Positions 9,768 through 63,593 of a DNA stretch of 64,000 nt are shown piece by piece. The stretch's first letter is position 1, and every line of letters begins with the position of its first letter. This DNA comes from Longimicrobiales bacterium. Lineage in GTDB: Bacteria; Gemmatimonadota; Gemmatimonadetes; Longimicrobiales; Gaopeijiaceae. The position numbers were made by a program, and so were the translations under genes. The DNA lies in the NCBI GenBank assembly GCA_965204735.1, contig OZ242008.1:2016001-2080000 (forward strand). Direction: 5' to 3'. The notes beneath the pieces are model-generated. The model searched no databases, had not been told where the DNA came from, and saw only the letters and a program-made list of their open reading frames with translations.

Positions 9768-11084
9768 CTAGGCCAGCCTCGCTTCCCAGTCGTCCAGAGT
9801 CACGAACCGTCCTTGGTCCACGACAGTGTAGTAGACGCGCTGCAGGCCCTGGCGACGCTCCGGTCCGAAGGAGACGCGCTCGCCCACGCCCAAGTCGTAG
9901 TCCTTGACCGAATAGACCGCCTCTTCCAGGCCGGAGCGCTGGGGGAGGTCCCCCAGTCGGTTCAGGATCTCCACCATGAGCTTCGCGTTCAGAAAGCCCT
10001 CCAAGCTCACGAAGCTGTGGGCGAAGGGCGTGTACGGCTCGTCGACGATCTCCTCCGGCACGGCGGGATCGTAGCGCTCCATGAAGTCCCGGTACTGCCT
10101 CACCGCAGGCATCGCGTCGTCCTCGTAGCTGGGCACCACTTGGGAGTTCACCAGCAGCCGCGTGTAGCGGGGCGCGTCCTCGCGGCCCTCCGACAGAAGC
10201 TGCAGGAGGTTCTCGCTTCCCACGAAGGAGAGGTTGGCGATCGGGACCCGGAGCCCCAGGTCCACGGCGTCGCGGGCGAAGGCGGCGCACGCGGCGTAGG
10301 CGCCGACGCAGATCACGGCGTCGGGCTGGGCCGACTGGAGGATCTCCACTTGACGGCGCATCGTCCCGGTGAACTTCTCTCCGCGGCTGTAGGTGGCCTC
10401 GCCCGCGATCCGTCCGCCGTGGACCGCCAGCGCTCGGCGAACCCCGGCCCACCCGCTCCGTCCGTAGGCGTCGGCCTGGTAGAAGACGGCGACGCGCCTT
10501 CGGCCGATCCGGACGAAGTTGTCCACCAGTCCAGCGGTTTCCTGCCGGTAGGAGGCCCGCAAGTTGAAGGCGAAGTCTCCGTAGGGCGGTTCCCGCTGCG
10601 GTTGGGCGCCGGTGAAGGGAAAGAAGAGGTAGACGTTTTCGTCCTGGAACTTCTTGAGCAGGGGCAGGACCCGGGTCACCGTGGGCGTTCCGACGTAGCC
10701 GAAGAGGAGGAACACCTGGTCCTCGATCATCAGCTGCACCGTGTTCTGGACCGACGGGTCGGGCTGGTATCCGTCGTCGTACATCTTCAGGACGATCTGG
10801 CGGCCCCTCACGCCGCCCGCCTGGTTGACGTGGGCGAAGTACGCCTGCGCGCCCCGGTAGAGCTCGATTCCCAACCCGCGGGATGGTCCGTTGAAGGCGG
10901 CCGAAACCCCCAGCACGATCTTGTCGTCGTCTTGGGCGAAGGGGTTGGAGCGCGCAGCGGAGCCGGCGCGGTTCGGGGCGGCGGCAAGAGGCGTCGGCGC
11001 CCTTCCCGACTTGGCCGGCAGGGCGAGCCATGGGGCCGCCGCGAGTCCTCCGACGCCGAACCGCAACATGGAACGGCGGGTCAT
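9768..11084 (-). CDS. periplasmic substrate-binding protein, LivJ/PBP1 type, Tat signal
   Basis: TRRSML twin-arginine signal; GGVRGRQIVL, DDGYQP and GYVGTPT motifs. Confidence 0.9.
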   Translation of the reverse strand: MTRRSMLRFGVGGLAAAPWLALPAKSGRAPTPLAAAPNRAGSAARSNPFAQDDDKIVLGVSAAFNGPSRGLGIELYRGAQAYFAHVNQAGGVRGRQIVLKMYDDGYQPDPSVQNTVQLMIEDQVFLLFGYVGTPTVTRVLPLLKKFQDENVYLFFPFTGAQPQREPPYGDFAFNLRASYRQETAGLVDNFVRIGRRRVAVFYQADAYGRSGWAGVRRALAVHGGRIAGEATYSRGEKFTGTMRRQVEILQSAQPDAVICVGAYAACAAFARDAVDLGLRVPIANLSFVGSENLLQLLSEGREDAPRYTRLLVNSQVVPSYEDDAMPAVRQYRDFMERYDPAVPEEIVDEPYTPFAHSFVSLEGFLNAKLMVEILNRLGDLPQRSGLEEAVYSVKDYDLGVGERVSFGPERRQGLQRVYYTVVDQGRFVTLDDWEARLA

Positions 11085-48125: not shown

Positions 48126-48539
48126 CTAGCGGCGGGCGTCCAGTACGCGGACATGGCCTTGAAGGCCGTAGGCGAGGATGGCTCTGTCGGCGGTCACGAG
48201 CGGCACGCCAAGGTGTCGCGCCGTGGCGACGATGAAGCGGTCCGCGGGATCGGCGCCAAGGTCTCCCGGCAGGCCCACGCTTGCCACGGCGATGGAGGGG
48301 TCGATGGGGATCAAGCGCAATCCGGGCAGAGCGAGAGCTTCGTCCAGCCAAGCGGCGACGTCGCGCCCCAGCCGGAGACGGCCCTTTTCCGCCAGCAGGG
48401 CAACTTCCCACGGCGTGATCGCCGAAAGGCCGACGCCTCCGGCGCGCGCGGCTTGGTTGACCCGATCGCGCGCAGTTGCTCCCAGTCGCCTGCTGCCGTC
48501 CACAACCCACACGAGCACATGGGTGTCGAGGACGATCAA
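48126..48539 (-). CDS. vapC: PIN-domain (VapC) toxin
   Basis: IVLDTHVLVW, SAITPWEV, DPADRFIVATA, LVTAD; TTG start overlaps antitoxin stop. Confidence 0.92.
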   Translation of the reverse strand: MIVLDTHVLVWVVDGSRRLGATARDRVNQAARAGGVGLSAITPWEVALLAEKGRLRLGRDVAAWLDEALALPGLRLIPIDPSIAVASVGLPGDLGADPADRFIVATARHLGVPLVTADRAILAYGLQGHVRVLDARR

Positions 48540-48778
48540 CGAAGCGCGGTCCAATCGGCCGGGTCGGCGGCGGGCTCGAACGGATCGTCGTAGCCGAGCA
48601 CCGATCCCCGCATGGCTCCGACCAAGAGCGGACTCCCGGCGTCGGCCGGCGCCGGCGACACGACGGCGACGGGCCGTCCGTGCCTCGTGACGACGACCGA
48701 CTCCCCGTCCCGGTTGATCTGCTTGATGACCCGAAGGCAGGTCGCCTTGAATGCCGCGGCTCCGATGGTCTTGCTCAT
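48536..48778 (-). CDS. Phd/YefM family antitoxin
   Basis: IGAAAFKATCLRVI...VVVTRHGRPVA; directly upstream of the PIN toxin. Confidence 0.92.
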   Translation of the reverse strand: MSKTIGAAAFKATCLRVIKQINRDGESVVVTRHGRPVAVVSPAPADAGSPLLVGAMRGSVLGYDDPFEPAADPADWTALR

Positions 48779-48824
48779 CTTCGGGTTGACCTCGCGTTCG
48801 CAGGAACGAAAAATGGACACGATA

Positions 48825-48854
48825 AAGGTACGTAACGTTTCCGTCGAAGGTCAA
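48825..48854 (-). promoter_or_regulatory. putative sigma70 promoter of the TA operon
   Basis: TTGACC-18 nt-TACCTT, same pattern as the csp and rrn candidate promoters. Confidence 0.55.
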
Positions 48855-49021
48855 TGGGGGCGTCGACCTGGGCCGCGCAGGACGACCGGCGAGAGGGGGC
48901 GCGGCAGCCGCGCGGCAGTATGGGAAGTGCGCCGTCGCTCGGTCGACCATAGCTTTACGGGACTCGCGTGCGTCCGCACGCCGCCGACCGCATCGCTTCC
49001 AGAAGGAGTTCGACCCGAAAG

Positions 49022-49669
49022 ATGAAGATCCGACACGCGTTCCCGTCCCCCGCCCTTCTCCCGTCCCTGGTCGCGCTGGCCAGCTTTGGCTGGGCGTGCG
49101 CCCCGGCCGCCGAGGAAGCCTCCGAAGCCGGAGAGGCCTACGGCGAGGCGGGATCGTCCGCCGACGAGCACCCCGCCCCGCCGTCCGTCTTCGCCGAGAT
49201 CGAGACCGATCTGGCCACCGTGGAGGAGAAGCTGGTGGGGTTGGCGGAGGCCATGAGCGAGGAGCACTACGGCTGGCGGCCCATGGAGGGCGTGCGCTCG
49301 ACCGGGGAGCTGTTCATGCACGTCACGGCGGACAACTACCTGCTGCCGGCGATGGCGGGAACTCCGGTGCCGGAGCACACCGAGATCGTGGCCACCGACT
49401 ACCAGTCGGTCCTAGCGTTCGAGGCCAGCATCACCGACCGGCAGGCGATCATCGACGAGATGAAGGCTTCGTTCGTCCACCTGCGGGAAGCGCTGACCGC
49501 CGTCGACCCCGCCATGGCGGGCCACGAGCTGGAGTTCTTCGGCCGGACCTCCACCGTCCAGGGGCTGTGGTTCCTGACCACCGTCCACCTCCACGAGCAC
49601 CTGGGCAACGGGATCACCTACGCCCGGGCGAACGAGGTGGTGCCGCCGTGGAGTCGGGGGGAGGGGTGA
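49022..49669 (+). CDS. DinB-family protein, probable lipoprotein
   Basis: WRPMEGVRSTGELFMH...HLHEHLG...YAR...VPPWS; signal ending GWAC. Confidence 0.85.
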   Translation: MKIRHAFPSPALLPSLVALASFGWACAPAAEEASEAGEAYGEAGSSADEHPAPPSVFAEIETDLATVEEKLVGLAEAMSEEHYGWRPMEGVRSTGELFMHVTADNYLLPAMAGTPVPEHTEIVATDYQSVLAFEASITDRQAIIDEMKASFVHLREALTAVDPAMAGHELEFFGRTSTVQGLWFLTTVHLHEHLGNGITYARANEVVPPWSRGEG

Positions 49670-49815: not shown

Positions 49816-50886
49816 CCACATCCAGTATCAGATCAGAATTCCACCGCGTTCCGCGGGAGGAGAGGATCTTGGGCCGTTCCCTGCGCCGTAGCGGAGCATC
49901 AACCTCATACGCAGCGGCAACGGTTCCATCGGGTATCCGTTCGGATATCTGCTCACCTTCTTTCCTTTCTTTTTAGGAATATCTTGTCTATTTTCATATT
50001 GAAAAACTGATTATTTGATAACATATGGAGTCGTACGCTAGCGTCCATTTTTTCCTTTCGTCGAAATGGATGGTTGTTATTGTCTTGACATCCAGACTGC
50101 TTTACAGCTCGATTACTAGTTCGATTCAGCCATGATTGCTCTTGTATCTTCAGAATTCTTTACCACAAACACACGACACAGTAACGAAACATCCAAACCC
50201 TACTACTACTACATCATCGCTCCAGATACTCTACTCTACTCTTGTGGAACTCGTGTCGTTCTCAGCGCGTCGTCTGACACAGCGTCTACTACTCGGTGAC
50301 TTCTACCTCCCCTTCTGGCCAACCTACCTCTCCGCTACGGGACTGCCGGCGCAACGCGGGTCTCCGGTGCGACCGTACCTGAATCATGACCTCCTACGCT
50401 CGCTCTGTCAACCCCCCGGCATCCACGCCATTGCCAAGCGTTCGGTAGGGCCGCAACCTGGGAGGGCGAGGTGCGAGGGTCGGACGTCTCGGGGCTCGTG
50501 TGCGAACTACGACTATCGGCGACGATAGGATTCAATTCGACCGCAGTGGAGGCCGGGACCATGGACGCAGTGAAGGCCGGGATCATGGAATCCTCGCGGC
50601 ACCCGTCAATCAGTTCCGAGGCGCGGGGCTCTCGGGAGAACCACGAGGCCATTCCCTCCTCCGTTCGCCAACCGTCGGAACGGACCGGAGCCGTGGGATG
50701 CGGTGAACACTCCCACCGGCAACGTGTTCGGCGCGCTCACGGTGAGCGTCCGTCGCTTCGGGTCGGCTCGGCGGTCCAGGGAGCCGCGGGTCCTGGCCCT
50801 GCACCTCCCCGGTCGCCCGGGCAACCGGTTCTTCTGGCCCTGGACCAGCCAGACGGTTGCCACCGTGGAGCGGCAGGAGACGTGAG

Positions 50887-53499
50887 GTGAGGGGCAAGCA
50901 AGCCGTCCTGCCCTGGGGGAAGCACGACGAGGAGTTGGGGCAATATCATCGGTTGGAGCACCACTGCGCGGACGTGGCCGCCTGCTTCGAGGCGTTGCTG
51001 GACGATCGCGTGCTGCTGGATCGCTTTCGGAAGGCGGCTGTACAGGCGGACGCCCTCGGCGACGTAACGCGGGCGCGGTTGACGGTCCTGGCGTTCCTGC
51101 ACGACTTCGGCAAGCTGAACGCAGGCTTTCAGTTCAAGCTCGAGTCCGACAGGACCGGGCTCCCGCCCAGAGCAGGGCACATCCGTGAGGCTTTCTGGTG
51201 TTTGGAGCGGCCAGGATACATGACGGCCTTGGGACTGGACGAGATGGCCCAGGCGTGGGGCTGCGGCCCCTTCGAACAGCTCCTGCGGGCGTCCTTGGCA
51301 CACCACGGAAGGCCGGCTGTCCGATACGACGGCAACCCCCCAGCCCTCTGGAGAGAAACCAACGGCTACAACCCCCTGGACGCCGCAAGAATGCTGGGCG
51401 AGAAGTGCCGATCCTGGTTTCCCACTGCCTTCACGGACGGACCGGAGTTGCCGGACGCTCCTCAGCTGGCTCACCTCTTCGCGGGGACGGTGGGCGTCGC
51501 GGACCAGATCGGATCGAACGAGCGGAGCTTCCCGTACGAGCCCATCCGCGACCCGACCTACATCGAGCGTGCCCGAGAGCTGGCCCAGAAGGCCGTGTCG
51601 GAACGGGGATTCGGCCGGGACGGCCGGTCCTCGCGGCTGGCGACGATCGATGTGGGCGCACTGTTCGGCTACGACAGGCCCCGACCACTCCAAACGGCGA
51701 CGCTCGATGCATCCCTCGACCAGAGACTCTTGATCCTCGAGAGCGAGACGGGTTCGGGCAAGACGGAGGCAGCCATTCTTCGCTTTGCCGCCCTCTGGAG
51801 TGCTCGCCGAGTGGACGGTCTCTACTTCGCGGTGCCCACACGGGCGGCGGCGAAGCAGCTGCACCGGCGGGTCCACGAGGCCCTGTTGCGCCTCTTTGGG
51901 GATCGATCGTGGAACGAGACGGTGCTTGCAATACCGGGATACCGGATCGTCGTCGGGACCACGGAGGGACGCCGGAAGGGCAGGTTTGAGGTCCAATGGC
52001 GAGACACGCCCGACGAGGAGACGCTTCGGGCCAGGTGGGCGGCGGAGGCGGCCCGCAAGTTCCTCTGCGCTACCTCTGCCGTTGGGACGGTCGACCAGGC
52101 CCTGCTGGCTGGGCTTCAAGTCAAATGGGCGCACTATCGAGGCGCGGCCCTTGCTCGCAGTCTGTTGGTGGTGGACGAAGTGCACGCGAGCGACGCCTAC
52201 ATGACGGAAGTGTTGCGGGGTGTCGTGCGGGACCACTTGGCCGTCGGTGGGCACGCCCTGTTGATGTCGGCGACGCTGGGTTCGGTGGCTCGCGTGGACC
52301 TGACGAGTGCGTCTACTGGGCGAAGGCGAGTTCGCCCGCCGGCGCGGTCGGAGGCCGAGCGGTATCCGTACCCCGCCCTGACACTCGCCGGCAACGAGAA
52401 GCCCCCGGTCGTCGACGCCATCGAAGACTGCGGCGTGGAGAAGTCGGTATCGGTGTCAGCTGCTCCCTTCTTGGACGATCCGGGCCGAATCGCTGTCGAG
52501 GCGTTGAGTCGTGCCCGGGACGGCGCCAAGGTCCTCGTCGTCCGCAACACGGTCAGGAGCGCGGTGCAGGTCTACGACGCGATTCGGACTCAGGGCGGAG
52601 GACATCTCCTGCTCCAAGTCGGCGGTCGGGAGGCGGTTCATCACAGCCGCTTTGCGGCAGAGGACCGGGAACGCCTCGACGAGGCTGTCGAAGGCTCGCT
52701 GGGGAAGTCGCGCCCCACCGGAGGGCGCGTGGTAGTTGGCACGCAGACCCTCGAGCAGTCCCTGGACATCGACGCCGACTACTTGATCTCCGACCTGTGC
52801 CCCATGGATGTCCTGCTCCAACGGATCGGTCGCTTGCACCGCCACTCCGAGAACAGGGACCGGCCCGACTCGTGTTCGACGGCCCAGTGTCTGGTGCTGA
52901 CGCCGGCAGAGGGCCTTGAGTCGGGCCTGGACGGACGCTTGACCCGATATGGCCTGGGGGCCGCGAGAGGCATAGGCGTGTATCGCAATCTGCTGGTCCT
53001 CGAAGCGACTCGCCGACAGATCGGGAGCGGCGCGGACTGGAGAATTCCCGCAATGAACCGGCAACTGGTCGAACGGGCCACGCACCCGGAGGTGGAGGAC
53101 GAACTGGCGAAGAGCCTCGGTAACCGCTGGATCACGAACGAGCAGGAGGAGTTCGGGCGCAGGGCTCAGGAGAGGCGGGTCGCCTGCGAGAACGCCCTGG
53201 ACCGGCACCAGCGGTTCGACGATGCCTTGGCCTTCCCGGGGACGGACGAGAAGATCGCTACGCGACTCGGAGAGGATGCCTGCCGGATCCGCTTGCCGGA
53301 TTCCGCCATCGGTCCGTTCGGGACCCGGGTTCGGACGTTTAGCCTTCCGGCCCACTTCTTCCGGGGCGGAGCGAGCCTGCCCAGCCGGGAGGAGGTGGAA
53401 CAGGCTTTGGTAACGGAGGTGGACGGGGTGCTGGTCCTTCGGGTGGGAGATCGTTCCTTCAGCTATGATCGTTGCGGAATCCGTCGGATCCGGCGCTGA
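50887..53499 (+). CDS. cas3: CRISPR-associated HD nuclease/helicase Cas3
   Basis: HCADV, HDFGK, AHHG, ETGSGKT, DEVH, SAT, QRIGRLHRH. Confidence 0.97.
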   Translation: MRGKQAVLPWGKHDEELGQYHRLEHHCADVAACFEALLDDRVLLDRFRKAAVQADALGDVTRARLTVLAFLHDFGKLNAGFQFKLESDRTGLPPRAGHIREAFWCLERPGYMTALGLDEMAQAWGCGPFEQLLRASLAHHGRPAVRYDGNPPALWRETNGYNPLDAARMLGEKCRSWFPTAFTDGPELPDAPQLAHLFAGTVGVADQIGSNERSFPYEPIRDPTYIERARELAQKAVSERGFGRDGRSSRLATIDVGALFGYDRPRPLQTATLDASLDQRLLILESETGSGKTEAAILRFAALWSARRVDGLYFAVPTRAAAKQLHRRVHEALLRLFGDRSWNETVLAIPGYRIVVGTTEGRRKGRFEVQWRDTPDEETLRARWAAEAARKFLCATSAVGTVDQALLAGLQVKWAHYRGAALARSLLVVDEVHASDAYMTEVLRGVVRDHLAVGGHALLMSATLGSVARVDLTSASTGRRRVRPPARSEAERYPYPALTLAGNEKPPVVDAIEDCGVEKSVSVSAAPFLDDPGRIAVEALSRARDGAKVLVVRNTVRSAVQVYDAIRTQGGGHLLLQVGGREAVHHSRFAAEDRERLDEAVEGSLGKSRPTGGRVVVGTQTLEQSLDIDADYLISDLCPMDVLLQRIGRLHRHSENRDRPDSCSTAQCLVLTPAEGLESGLDGRLTRYGLGAARGIGVYRNLLVLEATRRQIGSGADWRIPAMNRQLVERATHPEVEDELAKSLGNRWITNEQEEFGRRAQERRVACENALDRHQRFDDALAFPGTDEKIATRLGEDACRIRLPDSAIGPFGTRVRTFSLPAHFFRGGASLPSREEVEQALVTEVDGVLVLRVGDRSFSYDRCGIRRIRR

Positions 53500-53533: not shown

Positions 53534-53594
53534 AAGGTGTGGTTTGCAGCGTCTGGGGTGTGGGGTTGACCTCTGCGAGCCGGTTCGCTATGGA
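53534..53594 (+). promoter_or_regulatory. putative cascade-operon promoter with adjacent AAG-PAM self-target site
   Basis: TTGACC at 53566-53571 with a weak -10 (TATGGA, 53589-53594, 17-nt spacing); AAG at 53534-53536 followed by a sequence matching the mini-array spacer. Confidence 0.65.
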
Positions 53595-53776
53595 TTCTTC
53601 ATCCGTTTCGGTCCCATAAACCACAGGGGGGAGAACAAGAGATGATCGGCGAAACGAAAACGAAGATACCTGACGGAATCCGATTCCAGGTCGGGCTGGA
53701 AGGTGCCTATCGTGGGCTGGGCTTTCGAGCCGGACTGGGCGCGGAAGTCGTCCGCCATGACAGCGACAGGCCACGG

Positions 53777-53863
53777 CGCACTCCGGAAGGGCCGGAGATA
53801 ATCCCGTGTGGTGTGCCGCGTCTGGGGTCGAAGAGCCTCCTTCCCCGCCGGAGCGGGGGCACC
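53777..53863 (+). ncRNA. single-spacer mini-CRISPR (CreR/CreA-like crRNA-like regulatory RNA)
   Basis: Degenerate repeat 1 (ctccgg-aaggg-ccggag hairpin + ATAATCCC handle), 32-nt spacer 53806-53837, degenerate repeat 2 tccttccccgccggagcgggggcacc; spacer matches 53537-53559 at 21/23. Confidence 0.8.
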
Positions 53864-53882
53864 GTCGCCACTGGCGGCGACC

Positions 53883-55472
53883 ATGAATGACCTTCTCCGC
53901 GACCCGCTGATTCGGGTTCGGCTGGACACGGGCGTCGTCGAGGGGATGTCGTTGCCCGCCATCTATGCGGCCCTGGTAGAGGACCGGGTGGCCGCCTTCC
54001 CCGCTCTGCGGCCGCACCAACGCCACGGGTGGCACGCGTTCTTGGCCCAGCTTGCCGTGGTCGCCCTTCATTGGGCAGGACGCCGGCCACCCCCGAACGA
54101 GGCGGAATCGTGGCGAGCCCTGCTTCGGAGCTTGACCTCGGAGTGGGAGGCGGACGAGCCGTGGCAGCTGGTCGTGGAGAACCCGACGCGGCCCGCCTTC
54201 ATGCAGACGCCAGCACCCGAAGGGCTGGAAGCATACCGGAAACGGAGGGAAACGCCCGACGATTTGGACCTGTTGGTCACGTCCAAGAACCACGACCTCA
54301 AGCAGCAGGTCGCCGAGTGGGCGAGTCCAGAGGACTGGATCATGGCCCTGATCAGCCTCCAGACGATGGCTGGCTTCGGGGGCGCGGGGAACTACGGCAT
54401 CGCTCGGATGAACGGAGGGTACTCGTCGCGACCGTGCCTGGGGCTCGCCCCCAGTGGAGGAGGACTTGGGGCTCACGTGTTCTTCGATGTCGACAGGATG
54501 CTCCAGCACCGGGACCGCCTCCTGGAGGACTTTCACCACTATTACCAACCCGAAAATGGGCTGGCTCTGCTCTGGGCCGAGCCCTGGGACGGCAAGACCG
54601 CCCTCCGGCTGAAAGACCTCGACCCCTATTTCCTCGAAGTCTGCCGCAGAGTCCGACTGGTGTGGGAGGGTGGCCGCATGGTGGCCCGAACTGCGACCTC
54701 AACCACGGCGCGGGTCGCCGCCAAGACAGCCAACGGCAACCTGGGTGACTTCTGGACACCAATTCGGCGGGAAGACTCAGCGGCTCTCTCCGTCTCGGTT
54801 GTAGGGTTCCGATACGACCGCCTGGCAGACTTGATTCTCAGGAACCCCAAGCTCTTCAAGCTCCCAGCAGCCATGAAGGTCCCGGCCGGAGACGGGAATT
54901 CGTGCGCTCAATGGAAGTTGGTCGCCCGGGGGATGGCGTCCGGCCAGGGAAAGACCGAGGGCTACCATGAGCGGACTGGCGTCGTCCTCGCCGGCCGAAC
55001 GGCAAGAGCACTCATCGGCGGGGACACCAGCGTGACGCTCGCGAAGATCGCGGAAGACTTGATCAAGGAAATCGCCGAAGTCCAAAAGGCCCTTCGGTTC
55101 GGCGTCGCGACCGCCGCCAGTGGAGGCAAGGAGGCAAGCGAGATCACGAAAGCGGATCGGGAACAGGCATATCCCTTCGGTCGTCGGCTTGACGGCATCG
55201 CCGACGCATGGTTCTTTTCGGAGCTTCAAGATCGGTACCTCGCCACCGACGGCGAGCGGCCCGCCGTCCGGGCTAGGTTCGCCAGGTACCTCATAGCCAC
55301 AGCAAGGAAGTTGCTGAACGAAGCAGTTGATGCCGTGCCGGGCTCCACGATCCACCGTCACCGGGCGCGTGCCAGGGCGTTCCGCAGCTTCGAAGGCCAG
55401 TTGCGGCGCCTGGGCAGCCAGTTCGGAGATCAGCCCGAGATACTCGAACACAAGGAGGAAACCCATGACTGA
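53883..55472 (+). CDS. casA: type I-E Cascade large subunit Cas8e/Cse1
   Basis: NDLLRDPLI start, PAFMQ and YFLEVCRRVRL motifs; first gene of the cascade operon. Confidence 0.88.
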   Translation: MNDLLRDPLIRVRLDTGVVEGMSLPAIYAALVEDRVAAFPALRPHQRHGWHAFLAQLAVVALHWAGRRPPPNEAESWRALLRSLTSEWEADEPWQLVVENPTRPAFMQTPAPEGLEAYRKRRETPDDLDLLVTSKNHDLKQQVAEWASPEDWIMALISLQTMAGFGGAGNYGIARMNGGYSSRPCLGLAPSGGGLGAHVFFDVDRMLQHRDRLLEDFHHYYQPENGLALLWAEPWDGKTALRLKDLDPYFLEVCRRVRLVWEGGRMVARTATSTTARVAAKTANGNLGDFWTPIRREDSAALSVSVVGFRYDRLADLILRNPKLFKLPAAMKVPAGDGNSCAQWKLVARGMASGQGKTEGYHERTGVVLAGRTARALIGGDTSVTLAKIAEDLIKEIAEVQKALRFGVATAASGGKEASEITKADREQAYPFGRRLDGIADAWFFSELQDRYLATDGERPAVRARFARYLIATARKLLNEAVDAVPGSTIHRHRARARAFRSFEGQLRRLGSQFGDQPEILEHKEETHD

Positions 55473-56004
55473 CCCTGCTTCCATGCCGCTGGAGCGAATC
55501 GTTCCTAGGGTGGCGCAGAGAATCGCACGCCTCGGTCCCGGCCCTGCCGCGGCCTTGCGACGCAGTCCAAAGAAAGGGTCCGGTACGGCGGCATACTGGC
55601 AGCTGGTGGCGCAGTTGGAGCAGGACGGGCTGCGGGGTGAGAGTGAAGCCTGGAAGACGATCATCCAATCGATAGCCGTTCTGACCCCTCGCGGCCAAGA
55701 TCCCAAGAAGCAGTCGAGCCATGACCGGACCGTGCCGATGGGCGTGGCGCTTCTTGACGCCGGACTATCCGAACTTCGGTTGGCGCATCTGCTGAACGCT
55801 CGGACCGATGCGCGCCGGCGACTGATCGTTCGCACCTGCCGCAGGCTGGCATCCTCTGGACATCACCGCTTCGACCTGACGACGCTGGCTCGCTTCGTGC
55901 TGTACCAGAACAGCGACAAGCCTGCTCAGGACATCGCCAGAGAGTACTACCGCGCCGAGGCCCGGCAATCCACCCCACACCGGCAAGAGGAAACTTCGAC
56001 ATGA
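55465..56004 (+). CDS. casB: type I-E small subunit Cas11/Cse2
   Basis: GPAAALRR, SELRLAHLL, IAREYY; size and position between cas8e and cas7. Confidence 0.88.
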   Translation: MTDPASMPLERIVPRVAQRIARLGPGPAAALRRSPKKGSGTAAYWQLVAQLEQDGLRGESEAWKTIIQSIAVLTPRGQDPKKQSSHDRTVPMGVALLDAGLSELRLAHLLNARTDARRRLIVRTCRRLASSGHHRFDLTTLARFVLYQNSDKPAQDIAREYYRAEARQSTPHRQEETST

Positions 56005-57143
56005 GCGACACCCGGTTCCTTCAGATCCACACGCTCCATGGCTACTCGGCAGCCCTGCTCAACCGCGACGACGCCGGACACGCCAAGCGAATGAACTACG
56101 GCGGTGCGATCCGGACGCGCATCTCGTCCCAGTGTCTGAAGCGACACTGGCGCGTGGCAGACAGCTCGGACGCACTTGACAGGATCGATGGTGCCGTAGC
56201 TGCCGTCCGCTCCAGGGAAACGGTGACGCGGAGGGTCATCCAACCGCTCCGCGACCACCACGACGGCCCGGTGGTCGACGCGATAGAGGGAGAGTTTCAG
56301 AAGGCAGTATACGGCGAGAAGGGGGACCACAGGTCCAATCGCCAGCCGCTGCTCTTGGGCGATCCCGAGATCGACTACCTGGCTAGGGAAGCGCAACGGC
56401 TTGCGGAAGAGCACGCCGGCGACTCCACGGCCGCGGGCAAGGCCGCGAAGGCGTGGGTCAAGGATTCCAGGGCGAACCTGAAGGCCCTTCGCGAGAGCAC
56501 GACGTTGCCCGGCGGGCTCGTCTCGGCCCTCTTCGGTCGCATGGTCACCTCCGACCCGGAGGCGAACATCGACGCGGCTGTTCATGTGGCGCACGCGTTC
56601 ACCGTCCATGCCGAGGAGAGCGATAGCGACTACTTCACGGTCGTGGACGACTTGGCACGGGTCGAGGACGATCCCGGTGCGGACCACATCGGCGAGACGG
56701 AGCTGACCTCCGGCATCTTCTATGGCTATGTGGTGGTCGACCGGGCCATGCTGTTGGCCAACCTCGGTGGTGACGAAGCCATGGCCGGAACCGTAACGGA
56801 GCGGCTCGTTCACCTGATCGCCACGGTATCGCCGGGCGCCAAGCTAGGCTCCACGGCACCATACGGCTACGCGTTGTGGATTCTGATCGAGGCCGGAGAG
56901 CGCCAGCCACGTAGCTTGGCTGAGGCGTTTCGGAGACCGTCCCGACCAACGATGAAGCACGCCGAGAAGGCGGCTCGAGATCACCTCGCATCGGTCGACG
57001 CGGCGTTCGGCGCTGATGAGAGCCGGCGCTGGATGAGTGTCTCGGGACACGCAGATGTGCCGAAAGGCGAGAGGCTGTCGCTTCCCGACCTTGCCGTCTG
57101 GGCGGGCGGACAGATCGCGGATGCGACGCGGGACAACCGCTAG
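56001..57143 (+). CDS. casC: type I-E backbone Cas7/Cse4
   Basis: LNRDDAGHAK, RTRISSQCLKR, ALFGRM, VAHAFTVH, DYFTVVDD. Confidence 0.97.
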   Translation: MSDTRFLQIHTLHGYSAALLNRDDAGHAKRMNYGGAIRTRISSQCLKRHWRVADSSDALDRIDGAVAAVRSRETVTRRVIQPLRDHHDGPVVDAIEGEFQKAVYGEKGDHRSNRQPLLLGDPEIDYLAREAQRLAEEHAGDSTAAGKAAKAWVKDSRANLKALRESTTLPGGLVSALFGRMVTSDPEANIDAAVHVAHAFTVHAEESDSDYFTVVDDLARVEDDPGADHIGETELTSGIFYGYVVVDRAMLLANLGGDEAMAGTVTERLVHLIATVSPGAKLGSTAPYGYALWILIEAGERQPRSLAEAFRRPSRPTMKHAEKAARDHLASVDAAFGADESRRWMSVSGHADVPKGERLSLPDLAVWAGGQIADATRDNR

Positions 57144-57887
57144 ATGCGTTGGATGCATCTGCGCCTCGTCGGTCCAATGGCGTCGTTCGGCGGCGAGTCC
57201 GTCGACGCCCGTGGGGTCATTCGCGACTTCCCTGCCCTGTCGATGATGACGGGGTTGCTGGCAAATGCCCTGGGATGGACTCGGGCGATGGCCGACGAGC
57301 ACCAGGGCCTCCAAGATCGTCTCGTCTTCGGAGTTCTTTGGGAAGACGACGGAACCCTTCGTCGGATGACCGACTATCAGACGGCGGCGCTGCGCAAGGA
57401 CGATCGAGCGTGGACCACCCGCGGCTCCGTCTTTTCTAGGGACGGCGGGCCGAAGACCTACGACGGGTCGCACCAGCGCTATCGCGACTATCACGCCGAC
57501 CTGCGCATGTCCGTCGTGGCGCGCCTCGAACCCGAGGCCGACGATCCAACTCTGGACCAGCTTGCCGAAGCCGTTGCCCGGCCGGTCCGCCCGTTGTTCA
57601 TTGGGCGCAAGTGTTGCTTGCCGGCCGGTCCAGTGTTCTCTGGGTTCGTCGAGGCCGGCGACGTCTGCGCGGCCCTTGAGAAGTGCACGCCTGCAGACGG
57701 TCCGCCCGACATGGAGTACCGGGCGTTTTGGCCTTGGTCGGCGGAACATCAGGATCGGACGGTGACGGACGGCACTCGGGACGTGACTGTTCGAGACGTG
57801 ACGGACGAACGAAGCTGGCGCACTGGGCTCCATGGTGGCTCCAGACGCATCTGCGAGGGTAGGATCAAGGCGCGTGGAGGAAATTGA
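57144..57887 (+). CDS. casD: type I-E Cas5
   Basis: LRLVGPMASFG, GLLANALG, DYQT, PLFIGRKCCLP. Confidence 0.95.
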   Translation: MRWMHLRLVGPMASFGGESVDARGVIRDFPALSMMTGLLANALGWTRAMADEHQGLQDRLVFGVLWEDDGTLRRMTDYQTAALRKDDRAWTTRGSVFSRDGGPKTYDGSHQRYRDYHADLRMSVVARLEPEADDPTLDQLAEAVARPVRPLFIGRKCCLPAGPVFSGFVEAGDVCAALEKCTPADGPPDMEYRAFWPWSAEHQDRTVTDGTRDVTVRDVTDERSWRTGLHGGSRRICEGRIKARGGN

Positions 57888-57888
57888 A

Positions 57889-58680
57889 ATGGGCACGCAT
57901 ATGGTTAGCGCACCGATCAACGTCCACGCTCTGATGAAGTGGGCGGCGGGCCAGCGCGGACTCATGCGACGAGGAACGTTCGACGACGGATGGGCGCTGC
58001 ATGTGCTCTTGTCGGGCATGTTCGGAAAAGGGGCACTGCAACCATTCAGAATGTTCTGGTCCGACCGACGCCGCACCGGCACGCTCTATGGGTACGCGTC
58101 CGACGACGGGCGTGTCCTTCGTGAGACGGCCACCACGGTCGCACCTCCAGAATTCTGTTCAATCATTCGACCCGTAGAGATTCGCACCAAGCTGATGCCC
58201 CCAGCCTTTCGGCCCGGCCAGTTGCTGGGTTTCGATTTGCGAGCGCGCCCGGTTCGCCGAGTCTACGAGGACATTCGAGATGCCAAGCACAACAAGGTGG
58301 TGAAGAAGGGATCCGAGGTGGATGCGTATTGGCTGGATAAGCTTCGGAGCTCAAGGGGCGATGCTGCCGCCTCGCCCTCACTTCCTTCAGGAGGCGTTGC
58401 CCAACGTGAACACTGTTACCGAGAGTGGCTGGTTGCCCGACTGTCGAGCGCAGCCCAGGTGAAGGTGTGTCGACTCACGTCCTTCCGACGCGTCAAAGCC
58501 CTGCGGGGGCCAACGGTTGTGGAGGGTCCCGACGCCATCCTTCAGGGCGAGCTGGAGATTGGAGACCCTGTGCGGTTTGCGCAGGCGTTGCGACAGGGCG
58601 TTGGTAGACACAAGGCTTATGGCTACGGGATGCTTCTCCTTCGTCCCGCAAACCGGCGTCAGAGAAATGCAGGCACGTAG
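57889..58680 (+). CDS. casE: type I-E Cas6e/Cse3 endoribonuclease
   Basis: FDLRARP and C-terminal G-loop GVGRHKAYGYGMLLL. Confidence 0.95.
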   Translation: MGTHMVSAPINVHALMKWAAGQRGLMRRGTFDDGWALHVLLSGMFGKGALQPFRMFWSDRRRTGTLYGYASDDGRVLRETATTVAPPEFCSIIRPVEIRTKLMPPAFRPGQLLGFDLRARPVRRVYEDIRDAKHNKVVKKGSEVDAYWLDKLRSSRGDAAASPSLPSGGVAQREHCYREWLVARLSSAAQVKVCRLTSFRRVKALRGPTVVEGPDAILQGELEIGDPVRFAQALRQGVGRHKAYGYGMLLLRPANRRQRNAGT

Positions 58681-58740
58681 TTGGTTCCGCCGCATTGCTT
58701 GGTAGCGGCCGGAGCCGGCGTAGCGTAGGGCCATCTCCGA

Positions 58741-59631
58741 GTGTTGCTGGGTCGGCTGGGGCTTGATACCGCACGAATTCCCCATACAGATCGCGCCGGG
58801 CTCTTGTGGCTTGCACGTGGAAGCCTGACAGCGAAGGACGGCACCCTTACGTTTTCTCGGCGAGCCCGCAAGACTCCCGACGACCCACTGAGTCCTGGTG
58901 TCTTCGCAGTTCCGTTCCAAAGCGTGTCTATGATCCTGCTTGGCCCCGGTTCTACCGTGAGTCACGACGCCCTCAGGCTCTTGGGGCGACACGGGACCGC
59001 GCTAGCGGCGGTCGGCGAGGACGGGGTTCGGCTGTATACGGCCCCGCCGTTAGTAGTGGCTCGGCGATCGGAGCTTGCCAGGCGACAGGCAGTGGCCTGG
59101 AGCGACATTGATACTCGTGTGGCACTGGCTAGACGCATGTACGCATGGCGTCTTGGGGAAGTTGTTCCGCATAGGAGCATAGCGGCGTTGCGCGGCATCG
59201 AGGGAGCACGGATGCGCGAGAGCTATAGGCTCATTGCTTTGCGGGTTGGAATCGAATGGAAGGGGCGCCGCTACGACCGGTCACGGCCGACGGCGGCGGA
59301 CTTGCCTAACCAAGCTCTGAACCATGCGGCGACCGCCGTGGAGGCGGCGGCAGCGATTGCGGTTACGGCTACCGCGACGATACCTCAGCTTGGATTCGTG
59401 CACGAGCATCCAAGTCAGTCTTTCGTCCTGGACATTGCTGACTTGTTCCGGGACTCGGTGACGATCCCCGTTGCGTTCAAGGCCGCGAAGAAGGTCGATG
59501 CCCAGCCGGCACTGAGCATTGAGCGCGTGACGCGCCGGGGAGTAGGGCGGACGCTCGCGAAGAGCCAGACGATTCCGAAGATGATTGCTCGAATCAAGGA
59601 CCTCTTGGCGTCCACGGAGCTACCCAGCTGA
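58741..59631 (+). CDS. cas1: Cas1 (type I-E)
   Basis: LGPGSTVSH, LRGIEGAR, NQAL, LGFVH, SFVLDIADL. Confidence 0.97.
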   Translation: MLLGRLGLDTARIPHTDRAGLLWLARGSLTAKDGTLTFSRRARKTPDDPLSPGVFAVPFQSVSMILLGPGSTVSHDALRLLGRHGTALAAVGEDGVRLYTAPPLVVARRSELARRQAVAWSDIDTRVALARRMYAWRLGEVVPHRSIAALRGIEGARMRESYRLIALRVGIEWKGRRYDRSRPTAADLPNQALNHAATAVEAAAAIAVTATATIPQLGFVHEHPSQSFVLDIADLFRDSVTIPVAFKAAKKVDAQPALSIERVTRRGVGRTLAKSQTIPKMIARIKDLLASTELPS

Positions 59632-59924
59632 TGGCCATGACGGTGGTCGTGACGAGAGACGTGGAAGCCCGCTACCGTGGCTTCTTGGCGTCCGCGATGC
59701 TCGAGATCGCTCCGGGAGTCTACGTCGCGCCGACGCTGTCGAAGGCCGTCCGGGACCGCATCTGGGATGTCATGGAAAAGTGGTACACATTCTTGGGCCG
59801 AGGCTCGGTGTCAATGGCGTGGCGAGACAGTGCGATGCCCGGTGGACTCAGCCTGCTGTTCCTGGGCGAGCCGCCAAAGGAGATTTGCAACGCCGACGGC
59901 GTTCTGCTGGTGAAGAGGCTGTAG
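59631..59924 (+). CDS. cas2: Cas2 (type I-E)
   Basis: MTVVVTRDVEARYRGFL...LEIAPGVYV...RDRIW...DGVLLV. Confidence 0.95.
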   Translation: MAMTVVVTRDVEARYRGFLASAMLEIAPGVYVAPTLSKAVRDRIWDVMEKWYTFLGRGSVSMAWRDSAMPGGLSLLFLGEPPKEICNADGVLLVKRL

Positions 59925-59980: not shown

Positions 59981-62900
59981 GGCTTCCCCGTGTGGGCGGG
60001 GATAGACCACTTGAATGTGATCTCGACGAGCTTGCGGTCGCGGCTTCCCCGTGTGGGCGGGGATAGACCGCTGCACGCCTCCGGGCTGCCCGAGTAGACC
60101 GGGGCTTCCCCGTGTGGGCGGGGATAGACCGTTGTCGCCGTGGCGGATCATCGCGTCACCACCGGCTTCCCCGTGTGGGCGGGGATAGACCGCCCAAGTC
60201 GTCGGGCTGGTTGGGACAGCCGTTGGCTTCCCCGTGTGGGCGGGGATAGACCCGCCCGCCGCCTGGCCAAGGCGCGCGCGCGATGGGCTTCCCCGTGTGG
60301 GCGGGGATAGACCTCCGTCGTGGGTGGGACAGGGCATCGCCCACGAGGCTTCCCCGTGTGGGCGGGGATAGACCCAGCCAGTCCTCCGCCACATCGGCAA
60401 TCGCGGTGGCTTCCCCGTGTGGGCGGGGATAGACCCATGCAAAGGCGCGGATCAATGTCTTCCCCCTGGGCTTCCCCGTGTGGGCGGGGATAGACCGCGT
60501 GGCGCGATGCGGAGAGCATCGGCATCCACGGCTTCCCCGTGTGGGCGGGGATAGACCTGATCGAGTACCCTGTGACCGCGCGCGGCACGAGGCTTCCCCG
60601 TGTGGGCGGGGATAGACCGGCGTCGGACATGGACGAGGACGGCTGGGGCCGGGCTTCCCCGTGTGGGCGGGGATAGACCCAGGCCGTCGGGCATCGCTTC
60701 AGGCCAGGCAGCGGCTTCCCCGTGTGGGCGGGGATAGACCTGGACCCCGTGGACCGGCAGGAGGCGAACATCGGGCTTCCCCGTGTGGGCGGGGATAGAC
60801 CGTAGCGCGCGCTGAACCGTGCGGCCGCGACGGCGGCTTCCCCGTGTGGGCGGGGATAGACCCCAGCGTCGCGCCAGGCTCACGGCGCGGCTCGTGGCTT
60901 CCCCGTGTGGGCGGGGATAGACCCAAGGCGCGACCGACGGCGGCGCCGATGAGTTCGGCTTCCCCGTGTGGGCGGGGATAGACCGAGGACGAGATGACTG
61001 GACGGACCGAGACCCTGGGCTTCCCCGTGTGGGCGGGGATAGACCGCGGATCGCGTCACGCAGCGACCGCCGCACCGTGGCTTCCCCGTGTGGGCGGGGA
61101 TAGACCGGGACCCCCGACGGACCCCCGACGGGTCGGCGAGGCTTCCCCGTGTGGGCGGGGATAGACCCCGTGCGCGGGCGTGCGATCCGGACGCGGCGTA
61201 GGCTTCCCCGTGTGGGCGGGGATAGACCGTCGACGGGCGTGCAGACCTCGAGCTCTGCCCCGGCTTCCCCGTGTGGGCGGGGATAGACCGCGGTGAAGGC
61301 GGCAAGCGGGCGGGCGTACATCGGCTTCCCCGTGTGGGCGGGGATAGACCGCTCGCCTACGGGCTGACGTTCAGCGCCGCCGAGGCTTCCCCGTGTGGGC
61401 GGGGATAGACCGTGCCAGCCCTTCTTGTCCACCAGCCGCGCGCGGGCTTCCCCGTGTGGGCGGGGATAGACCCTGGAGCTTCCAACTGCGCGGCTGTCTC
61501 GCGCTCGGCTTCCCCGTGTGGGCGGGGATAGACCCTCGGTCGTGTCGCGGTGCAGGTCGTTCGGGTTGGCTTCCCCGTGTGGGCGGGGATAGACCTCCGA
61601 CCGGGCCGCGCATCTACGATCCGGACACGGCTTCCCCGTGTGGGCGGGGATAGACCGCAGGCGGCCATCGACAAGTTCGGCGCCGACGTGGCTTCCCCGT
61701 GTGGGCGGGGATAGACCGAAGACCTGGCAGTGCCCGTCGGACCGGCGGATGGCTTCCCCGTGTGGGCGGGGATAGACCCCGGCCGTTGCCGAAGCGGAAG
61801 TCGCGGGCCATGGCTTCCCCGTGTGGGCGGGGATAGACCGCGAACCAGCCAGCTGGGCATGGGGCAGTCGGTGGCTTCCCCGTGTGGGCGGGGATAGACC
61901 CTTCATCCGTCGGCGCGTGATCCGCGACCGCGAGGCTTCCCCGTGTGGGCGGGGATAGACCGCTGACCAAGGCGATGGCGACGGCGATCCGGGAGGCTTC
62001 CCCGTGTGGGCGGGGATAGACCCCCGCCTGCTCGGCGCATCGCGGAGCACGGGCCGGCTTCCCCGTGTGGGCGGGGATAGACCGTCCGTAGATCGCTGCT
62101 GCTGTGGTACCGGTACGGCTTCCCCGTGTGGGCGGGGATAGACCGTCCGTAGATCGCTGCTGCTGTGGTACCGGTACGGCTTCCCCGTGTGGGCGGGGAT
62201 AGACCCGTCCCCGGCCGAGACCGGGGCACAGGAGAGCGGGCTTCCCCGTGTGGGCGGGGATAGACCGCTTCAGATGCGCGGCGGGCGGACCGGCCCGTCG
62301 GCTTCCCCGTGTGGGCGGGGATAGACCCCAACGGAGCAGGGACTGACGGACCAGCAGGAGGGCTTCCCCGTGTGGGCGGGGATAGACCGTAGGCGGGGAA
62401 CGCCTTGGCTGCGCACCGCCGGGCTTCCCCGTGTGGGCGGGGATAGACCGCCGGGGAGGCCCGGCGTCCTCGATCCCCGACCGGCTTCCCCGTGTGGGCG
62501 GGGATAGACCCAGCGCGTCGTGGGCCTCGACCTTGGCCCAGTCGGCTTCCCCGTGTGGGCGGGGATAGACCGTAGGCGCGCCGGGGTACGCCGTGGGCGC
62601 GTGCGGCTTCCCCGTGTGGGCGGGGATAGACCCATGGAAGATGCGCCCATAAAGCTTATTGCTTGGGCTTCCCCGTGTGGGCGGGGATAGACCCGATTCG
62701 GGTCATGATGACGGACGCTCGGACCAGGCTTCCCCGTGTGGGCGGGGATAGACCATAACTCGTTTTCCTCGCCGCCGCCGCGAGACCGGCTTCCCCGTGT
62801 GGGCGGGGATAGACCCTTCGTGGGCATCACGCTTCGGTCTCCGCTGACGGCTTCCCCGTGTGGGCGGGGATAGACCCCACATCGTCATATGGGGGCCGGC

Positions 62901-63593
62901 TCCTGACGCGGCTTCCCCGTGTGGGCGGGGATAGACCTGCAGTGGGCGGCACGGGCGCGCTGAGCTACGAGGCTTCCCCGTGTGGGCGGGGATAGACACC
63001 ACGTCCCCGGCGGCAGCCTCGATGCGCACGAGGCTTCCCCGTGTGGGCGGGGATAGACCCGAGACGAACCACGCGGGCCACAGACCCCACTCGGCTTCCC
63101 CGTGTGGGCGGGGATAGACCCGGCCCGACGTGGGCGCGACGGTCGAGGTGGACGGCTTCCCCGTGTGGGCGGGGATAGACCCGCGATTCGCCTTCTACCT
63201 GGCGGCCGGCGGTCGGCTTCCCCGTGTGGGCGGGGATAGACCCTTGGCGTCCGTCGCCCGCTCGCCCCGCTTGGCGGCTTCCCCGTGTGGGCGGGGATAG
63301 ACCCTGGTCATCCCAGAGGTCGAGCCCCCGGCAAGAGGCTTCCCCGTGTGGGCGGGGATTGTTACCGGCCACTGAAAATTGCACACTTCTGGCCGTCGAA
63401 AATTGCACACTTCCGGCTCCTGACGAAGCGGTGGCGCGAGCCCCTTGGGCTGCCGTCCTCTTCGACCAGATGCGGGCGGTCGTCGTGAGCCATGGGCGAG
63501 CGACCCGGCTTCCGTGTGGGCGGGGATAGACCCGAGGGCATGCTGGACACCGAGGCTGCGGCCCGGGCTTCCCCGTGTGGGCGGGGATAGACC
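59981..63593 (+). CRISPR. type I-E CRISPR array, about 58 repeats
   Basis: 28-nt repeat GGCTTCCCCGTGTGGGCGGGGATAGACC, 61-nt period (one 62). Truncated copy at 63337, 26-nt variant at 63507, last copy 63566-63593. Hairpin CCCCGT/GCGGGG with a G-U pair; same orientation as the E. coli I-E repeat. Confidence 0.99.
63360..63506. mobile_element. IS21-family terminal remnant inserted into a CRISPR repeat
   Basis: Begins TGT; ggccNNNgaaaattgcacacttc repeated at 63367-63389 and 63391-63413; interrupts the repeat after 23 nt; no transposase present. Confidence 0.75.

Follow-up and report, generated by a model that had tools for sequence, protein, structure and literature searches.

The type I-E CreR of Salmonella enterica is experimentally established, and its relief by competing crRNAs or by anti-CRISPRs has been shown (10.1101/2023.03.10.532045). 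It is a mini-CRISPR of two degenerate repeats close to the first gene of cascade, with an 8-nt handle on repeat one and a 3' handle on repeat two, and its guide partially matches (15 consecutive bases) an AAG-flanked site at the cascade promoter. The class is known, as the original prediction for the locus described here allowed, and it is common: regulatory mini-arrays lie between cas3 and cas8 in about 19% of bacterial I-E loci (10.1101/2023.03.03.530964). In the I-B creTA operon of Halobacterium hubeiense, a promoter, a cargo and a two-repeat self-repressing guide share one transcript, the cargo, CreT, being a six-codon RNA toxin that is encoded upstream of creA and separate from it (PMC8501985). 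The I-E CreT/CreA pair of Citrobacter rodentium places a translated 96-bp toxin ORF in the cas3-casA gap, under a guide-targeted promoter, with the target overlapping the UP element and the guide upstream on the opposite strand; toxicity was shown there (PMC12055562). Acinetobacter I-F CreP is likewise a small translated gap ORF under a guide-targeted promoter, its product a KilAC-domain protein of demonstrated toxicity (10.1101/2024.01.05.574328). In CRISIS (crlRNA-supervised I-C defence operons) the guide, with mismatches at positions 6 and 12, lies inside the cas operon that it represses, but as a single repeat unit (SRU) between genes, and the cargo consists of full defence systems (10.1101/2024.12.27.630466). 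A guide within its own repressed transcript thus has precedents in H. hubeiense creTA (PMC8501985) and in the SRU of the Nezha-cas operon (10.1101/2024.12.27.630466).

The window, meaning the whole 64,000-nt stretch of Longimicrobiales bacterium DNA that was analysed, holds a complete type I-E set (cas3, cas8e, cas11, cas7, cas5, cas6e, cas1 and cas2) and an array with a 61-nt period. With the queries used, no second such type I-E locus was found in the organism's own genome. The cas3-cas8e gap is 383 nt long (cas3 ends at 53499 and cas8e starts at 53883). The features of the locus, all on the plus strand, are as follows.

50857-53499, plus strand: cas3 (HD nuclease-helicase), given as the longest ORF, its true start not fixed
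53534-53536, plus strand: PAM, AAG
53537-53559, plus strand: guide target, 21/23 matched (mismatches at 8 and 12); 53568 is the last base of the full 32-nt site
53566-53594, plus strand: candidate sigma-70-type promoter TTGACC-17-TATGGA (inferred), -35 at 53566-53571, -10 imperfect
53628-53633, plus strand: Shine-Dalgarno-like GGGGAG of the leader ORF, read from the sequence
53642-53890, plus strand: 82-codon leader ORF that ends with an 8-nt overlap with the start of cas8e; either a translated leader or a candidate CreT-like peptide
53781-53805, plus strand: pseudo-repeat 1, with a 6-bp hairpin CTCCGG/CCGGAG (53781-53797) and the 8-nt 5' handle ATAATCCC (53798-53805)
53806-53837, plus strand: guide spacer, 32 nt
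53838-53865, plus strand: pseudo-repeat 2, 6-bp stem at 53843-53858; 16 of 28 bases equal the array repeat (direct reading)
53863-53879, plus strand: hairpin over the degenerate cas8e Shine-Dalgarno sequence (GGCGG), predicted fold
53883-55472, plus strand: cas8e (Cse1)
55327-59924, plus strand: cas11, cas7, cas5, cas6e, cas1 and cas2
59981-63593, plus strand: CRISPR array with a period of 61 nt and 55 exact copies of the repeat

After the 28 nt of each array repeat comes a base that varies, being G in 24 of the 55 copies, C in 24, T in 5 and A in 2. Array spacers find only partial matches of 16-25 nt in the organism's own genome, from which a PAM is not derivable; spacer 11 (60619-60650) partially matches many sites there, at up to 23/24 nt, and these are probably a repeated coding motif. 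Two identical spacers stand side by side at 62084-62176. The end of the array is interrupted (63304-63593), the repeat being broken by a stretch of tandem AAAATTGCACACTT motifs that looks like an insertion-sequence end, with degenerate units after it. Upstream of cas3 lie a PIN-domain ORF (48126-48950, minus strand) and a DinB_2 ORF (48968-49669, plus strand). A relative of the stretch was found on a 2.8-kb contig from a sponge metagenome run.

The original prediction placed a mini-CRISPR with two diverged repeats in the cas3-cas8e gap, with the handle-then-spacer geometry of the array; both statements hold, and all of its coordinates check. The C that ends the guide's handle is normal, because the last base of the array repeat is variable. 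Like Salmonella CreR, the module has two degenerate repeats, an 8-nt 5' handle on the first and a hairpin on the second, and a partial match to an AAG-flanked site, here by the putative cascade promoter (10.1101/2023.03.10.532045). Unlike it, the window's match is 21/23, its guide lies on the sense strand downstream of the target, and the guide is nested in an ORF. It shares with the surveyed I-E mini-arrays the same gap, a PAM-flanked target at a promoter (in the window a candidate one) and sixth-position mismatches, but those examined in the survey run opposite to cas3 and have the target downstream (10.1101/2023.03.03.530964).

The pseudo-repeat 1 hairpin forms with a pair probability of 0.97-1.00 in all contexts folded. 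The stem of pseudo-repeat 2 depends on context: folded alone it has a probability of 1.0, and within the mature guide 0.8, but this drops to 0.22 with the whole leader and to 0.00 with 53770-53890. Since 15 of 51 genuine units of the array score below 0.2 too, the poor fold of pseudo-repeat 2 is a caveat and not a refutation. Cas6e cleaves at the stem base, and from this behaviour a cut is predicted after 53858, which would release a 61-nt RNA (53798-53858). An Rfam search of the gap returned a single match at chance level. Viral contigs were scanned by exact pattern for the guide and for pseudo-repeat 1, and no phage copy of either turned up.

That the spacer should match 53537-53559 with AAG directly upstream, and lose its pairing distally, is borne out. 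Over the full 32 nt, mismatches fall at 8, 12, 24-27 and 29-32, so that the PAM-flanked match is partial and PAM-proximal; mismatch 8 lies within what we take to be the seed. Target and spacer form a same-strand direct repeat, 269 nt apart. Elsewhere in the 4.14-Mb genome a 23-nt site has 5 mismatches at best (18/23 at most), and the sites at this level lack an A-rich PAM; a genome search with PAM plus seed returns the target site only, and none of 300 shuffled gaps contained an equally good match; with a unique site and 0/300 shuffles, the spacer-target match is not due to chance. The further claim that the target extends into the TTGACC box stands for the unpaired distal end, which overlaps it, but not for the paired part, which stops at 53559 and leaves six bases before the box.

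The promoter is the weakest element of the proposed module. TTGACC-17-TATGGA is the top-scoring promoter candidate in the gap and begins 6 nt beyond the paired part of the target; its -10, at 17-bp spacing, lacks the final T, and a consensus promoter scan called no sites at all, the candidate included. T occupies that -10 position in 57% of the TTGAC-17-TA sites of the organism's own genome. In most related loci a TTG-17/18-TAnnnT-like site either overlaps the target or lies shortly before it. At the level of sequence, every CreR/CreA feature tested is present in the module, with the promoter as a candidate.

The prediction had named spacer-target conservation in related loci as a check. Related loci were gathered from collections of genomes and metagenomes through the similarity of their Cas8e, and a pair was counted when a handle was followed by a spacer with at least 13/18 matches elsewhere in the gap, by plain identity and with the PAM not a criterion. 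Left out before counting were duplicates (L002, L011, L015, L016, L017, L043, L047, L071 and L073), L014, distant Cas8e loci without an adjacent cas3 match (L029-L037, L039 and L040) and gaps shorter than about 150 nt, which left 40 gaps for examination. A spacer-target pair is present in 26 of these; the other 14 contain no qualifying pair. All 26 targets carry an adenine-led PAM: AAT in 13, AAC in 11, AAG in one (the window) and AGG in one. Of 103 mismatches, 61 lie at position 6, 12 or 18, against 17 expected; for 12 de-duplicated spacers the figure is 26 of 41. The related loci being kin and not independent, p-values of this tally overstate the significance. These three positions are the ones left unpaired in Cascade, as is stated for 6 and 12 (10.1101/2023.03.03.530964; 10.1101/2024.12.27.630466). 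Pairs that differ in sequence therefore recur with the PAM and the 6-nt mismatch period, as the prediction had called for. In the two strain relatives the sole spacer change listed is at position 18; one strain-relative contig keeps a 21-nt target island with both flanks replaced, although sides as short as these are uncertain.

The pairs come in three geometries: the guide downstream of the target on the sense strand, which is the window's layout; the guide upstream on the reverse strand, in a Caldilineaceae family and matching the published survey form (10.1101/2023.03.03.530964); and the guide upstream on the sense strand (L006, L010 and L038). Spacers in the 14 loci with the window's layout are either 19-20 or 31-33 nt long. 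A Cas7 subunit accounts for 6 nt, and the step of about 12 nt suits two such subunits as well as the reading frame that is taken up below. The module is dispensable, since L003 and several sister loci have lost it. The 136-nt gap of L003 (same genus, 9864-10001) keeps pseudo-repeat 2 and the last ~14 bases of the spacer, and is without the ORF, pseudo-repeat 1 and the seed; the sister loci L013, L041 and L042 have also lost the module, and several are without a gap. In another locus (L044) the gap before cas8e has more repeat-like hairpins after the second pseudo-repeat, as if extra mini-array units were present.

The original prediction treated the region between the promoter and cas8e as a 5' leader. 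Guides in such a position have precedents, as noted, but the description is incomplete: a conserved open frame crosses the whole mini-array. The Shine-Dalgarno-led ORF at 53642-53890 begins past the candidate promoter and runs across the two pseudo-repeats with the spacer between them before it stops at the start of cas8e. This arrangement of a putative cargo gene under a guide-targeted promoter is that of CreTA and, with a small ORF in the cas3-cascade gap, that of C. rodentium (PMC12055562). It departs from H. hubeiense, where creT and creA are separate, in that the 82-codon frame contains the guide and enters cas8e (PMC8501985). An open frame, with ATG or GTG above pseudo-repeat 1, is kept in 13 of the 14 window-layout loci, with its stop 1-17 nt into cas8e; the exception is L004, where the stop is within the spacer. 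At least 60 codons led by a Shine-Dalgarno sequence are found in 9 of the 14, a test that shuffles pass at a rate of 1-8.5% each (8.5% for the window's own gap), but 13 of the 14 belong to one Cas8e clade in a quick tree, so that these ORF counts are not independent.

Seven of the 14 loci have this frame in common and begin it at -223, -229, -235 or -241; L025 preserves it despite a 12-nt insertion. Two groups of relatives have no stops in the ORF frame versus 1-13 in each other frame, and the synonymous share in the two groups is highest in the ORF frame among the three forward frames (0.23 versus 0.12-0.15). In neutral simulations, four such ORFs stay stop-free in 0.05-1.25% of runs. Five homologues of the window peptide cover its full length at 65-84% identity, residues 13-40 forming a conserved core, and a beta-hairpin is predicted at residues 12-37 with modest confidence (mean pLDDT 62.9, 6 sequences). 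Selection at the protein level is weak: dN/dS is 0.45-0.64 for the ORF versus 0.19-0.25 for cas8e in relatives with ORFs outside the window's own ORF family, and 7 of the 10 changes listed for the window's ORF are, by direct reading, non-synonymous. A Pfam search of the ORF found no domain, and no known toxin domain was found; an ESM Atlas search gave a best score of 0.76 and no lead, Foldseek with the ORF model nothing at E 0.001, an ORF-alignment profile search of 1.84 billion representatives only 2 matches, and a search of three other genomes of the genus with the ORF alignment none. A complex prediction for ORF residues 5-50 with Cas8e scored 0.01, which speaks neither for nor against a contact. 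Rare codons are scattered over the 82 codons, none adjacent to another; the tRNA-sequestering haloarchaeal CreT, in contrast, has consecutive rare codons and a stem-loop. We nevertheless consider it probable that the leader ORF is translated. Many relatives carry their own Shine-Dalgarno sequence before cas8e (two have GGAGG at that place, C53875A), and translational coupling is therefore not needed in those relatives.

In other lineages the same slot is occupied differently. Six loci of the Caldilineaceae family have a Shine-Dalgarno-led ORF of 76-77 codons between the promoter and cas8e, ending on the cas8e start, with the guide on the reverse strand in five and not located in one. Its products form a protein family (L051, L056 and L059-L062; for example L059:1272-1499, plus strand) with 13 database matches and no Pfam domain. 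L057 and L070 have an additional type of slot ORF, and the gap of L072 has a short ORF that by eye resembles a ribbon-helix-helix antitoxin, upstream of a reverse-strand mini-array. Profile-profile comparison of three ORF groups confined homology to the repeat-derived part. In three loci of a Terriglobia order the slot, which there lies between the targeted promoter and the mini-CRISPR, contains a tRNA gene preceded by a long inverted repeat; the three genes are the following.

L004:9723-9796, plus strand: slot tRNA gene
L046:1227-1297, plus strand: slot tRNA gene
L044:3385-3455, minus strand: slot tRNA gene

ARAGORN gives them the alanine anticodons TGC, TGC and AGC, in the order TGC, TGC, AGC for the three, and Rfam scores the L046 gene at 55.8 bits. 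Their acceptor stem has no G3-U70 and ends in U, a look that we take to be Cys-like, and the slot tRNA is a candidate for a mis-decoding tRNA cargo repressed by CRISPR. Since unrelated 76-77-codon ORFs or a tRNA gene can fill it, the slot carries changing cargo, as would be expected of a CreTA-like module that combines cargo and guide.

The sequences themselves show the parts, the uniqueness of the target, its covariation with the spacer and the conservation of the open frame; the working of the module is reasoned from the known systems. A promoter behind cas3 would give a single transcript carrying the small ORF with its nested mini-CRISPR, followed by cas8e-cas11-cas7-cas5-cas6e. Cas6e would cut both pseudo-repeats and release the 61-nt crRNA-like RNA, and Cascade with this guide would bind, through about 23 bp, the site that follows AAG and lies shortly before the -35 box. 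R-loop locking governs Cas3 recruitment; with such short pairing the R-loop would not lock, Cas3 would not be called, and the promoter would be dampened. The result would be negative feedback, relieved wherever Cascade is taken up by competing crRNAs or disabled by an anti-CRISPR. By analogy with those systems, we think it likely that the guide is a CreR/CreA-type repressor of the cascade promoter, with processing, binding and repression as known there. Because the pseudo-repeats lie within the ORF, Cas6e processing would also cut the coding region, if the ORF is translated: making the guide would destroy the ORF message, leave a stop-less 5' piece and end translational coupling into cas8e, whose remaining message in the window would have only its degenerate, hairpin-covered Shine-Dalgarno sequence. 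Whether that cut has a regulatory role is close to an even question, and we lean slightly against it.

How much of this belongs to the guide and how much to the ORF is where the readings part. A local duplication without function, or a decayed array remnant, might have been suspected from a 23-nt match whose two copies form a same-strand direct repeat at a distance of 269 nt, and from pseudo-repeats that are far from the array repeat; it leaves unexplained a PAM at every target and mismatches at 6, 12 and 18 across differing sequences in both principal geometries, and is largely refuted and very improbable. The original prediction, in which the guide alone matters, would make the open frame incidental or vestigial; it draws on the high G+C content that favours open frames (as the shuffles of the window's gap attest), on the single clade of the same-layout loci, on an ORF dN/dS not far below 1, and on L004, which has the same layout and no read-through frame. 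Against it stand the keeping of the frame in diverged loci whose peptides are unrelated and differ in length by multiples of 3, and the rarity with which neutral simulations keep all four ORFs open; we consider it unlikely in this bare form, though a serious contender.

No better, in our judgement, are the prospects of CreTA-type addiction, in which an 82-aa toxin would be kept in check twice, through repression of the promoter by Cascade and cleavage of the message by Cas6e, and freed when Cascade or Cas6e is lost or inhibited. The position of the ORF between targeted promoter and guide, as that of creT in H. hubeiense (PMC8501985), the toxin ORF in the C. rodentium gap (PMC12055562), the varying slot cargo (six Caldilineaceae-family ORFs, three Terriglobia-order tRNA genes) and the conserved beta-hairpin core all speak for it. 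The peptide, however, has neither a known toxin domain nor a rare-codon run, selection on it is weak, the three ORF groups are without detectable homology outside their repeat-derived part, and the module is easily lost in sister loci. That the peptide is toxic, which rests on the analogy with C. rodentium CreT and on the cargo pattern, is accordingly a tentative and rather doubtful proposal. The fullest version is more speculative still: one stretch of DNA would encode a small beta-hairpin peptide toxin together with its silencing RNA, two Cas6e cuts would destroy the message, uncouple cas8e and yield the guide that shuts the promoter, so that Cas6e and Cascade would be sensed separately, with unrelated peptides or a tRNA in the slot elsewhere. 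The module, with a guide that likely represses the cascade promoter, may nonetheless be CreTA-like, cargo plus guide, and not a standalone CreR.

The regulatory class is known and common; this clade's own contribution is to embed the guide in a conserved frame whose stop lies at the start of cas8e. In the open-access text searched we found no guide nested in a coding frame; the survey supplements, which lie outside that scope, may list such loci. For this I-E clade, the 26 pairs reveal the PAM (AAN) and the 6-nt mismatch period in the absence of any phage match. If the ORF is translated, crRNA processing gains a second job, control of a message, and uncharacterised, poorly conserved small cargoes become candidate CRISPR-repressed toxins.
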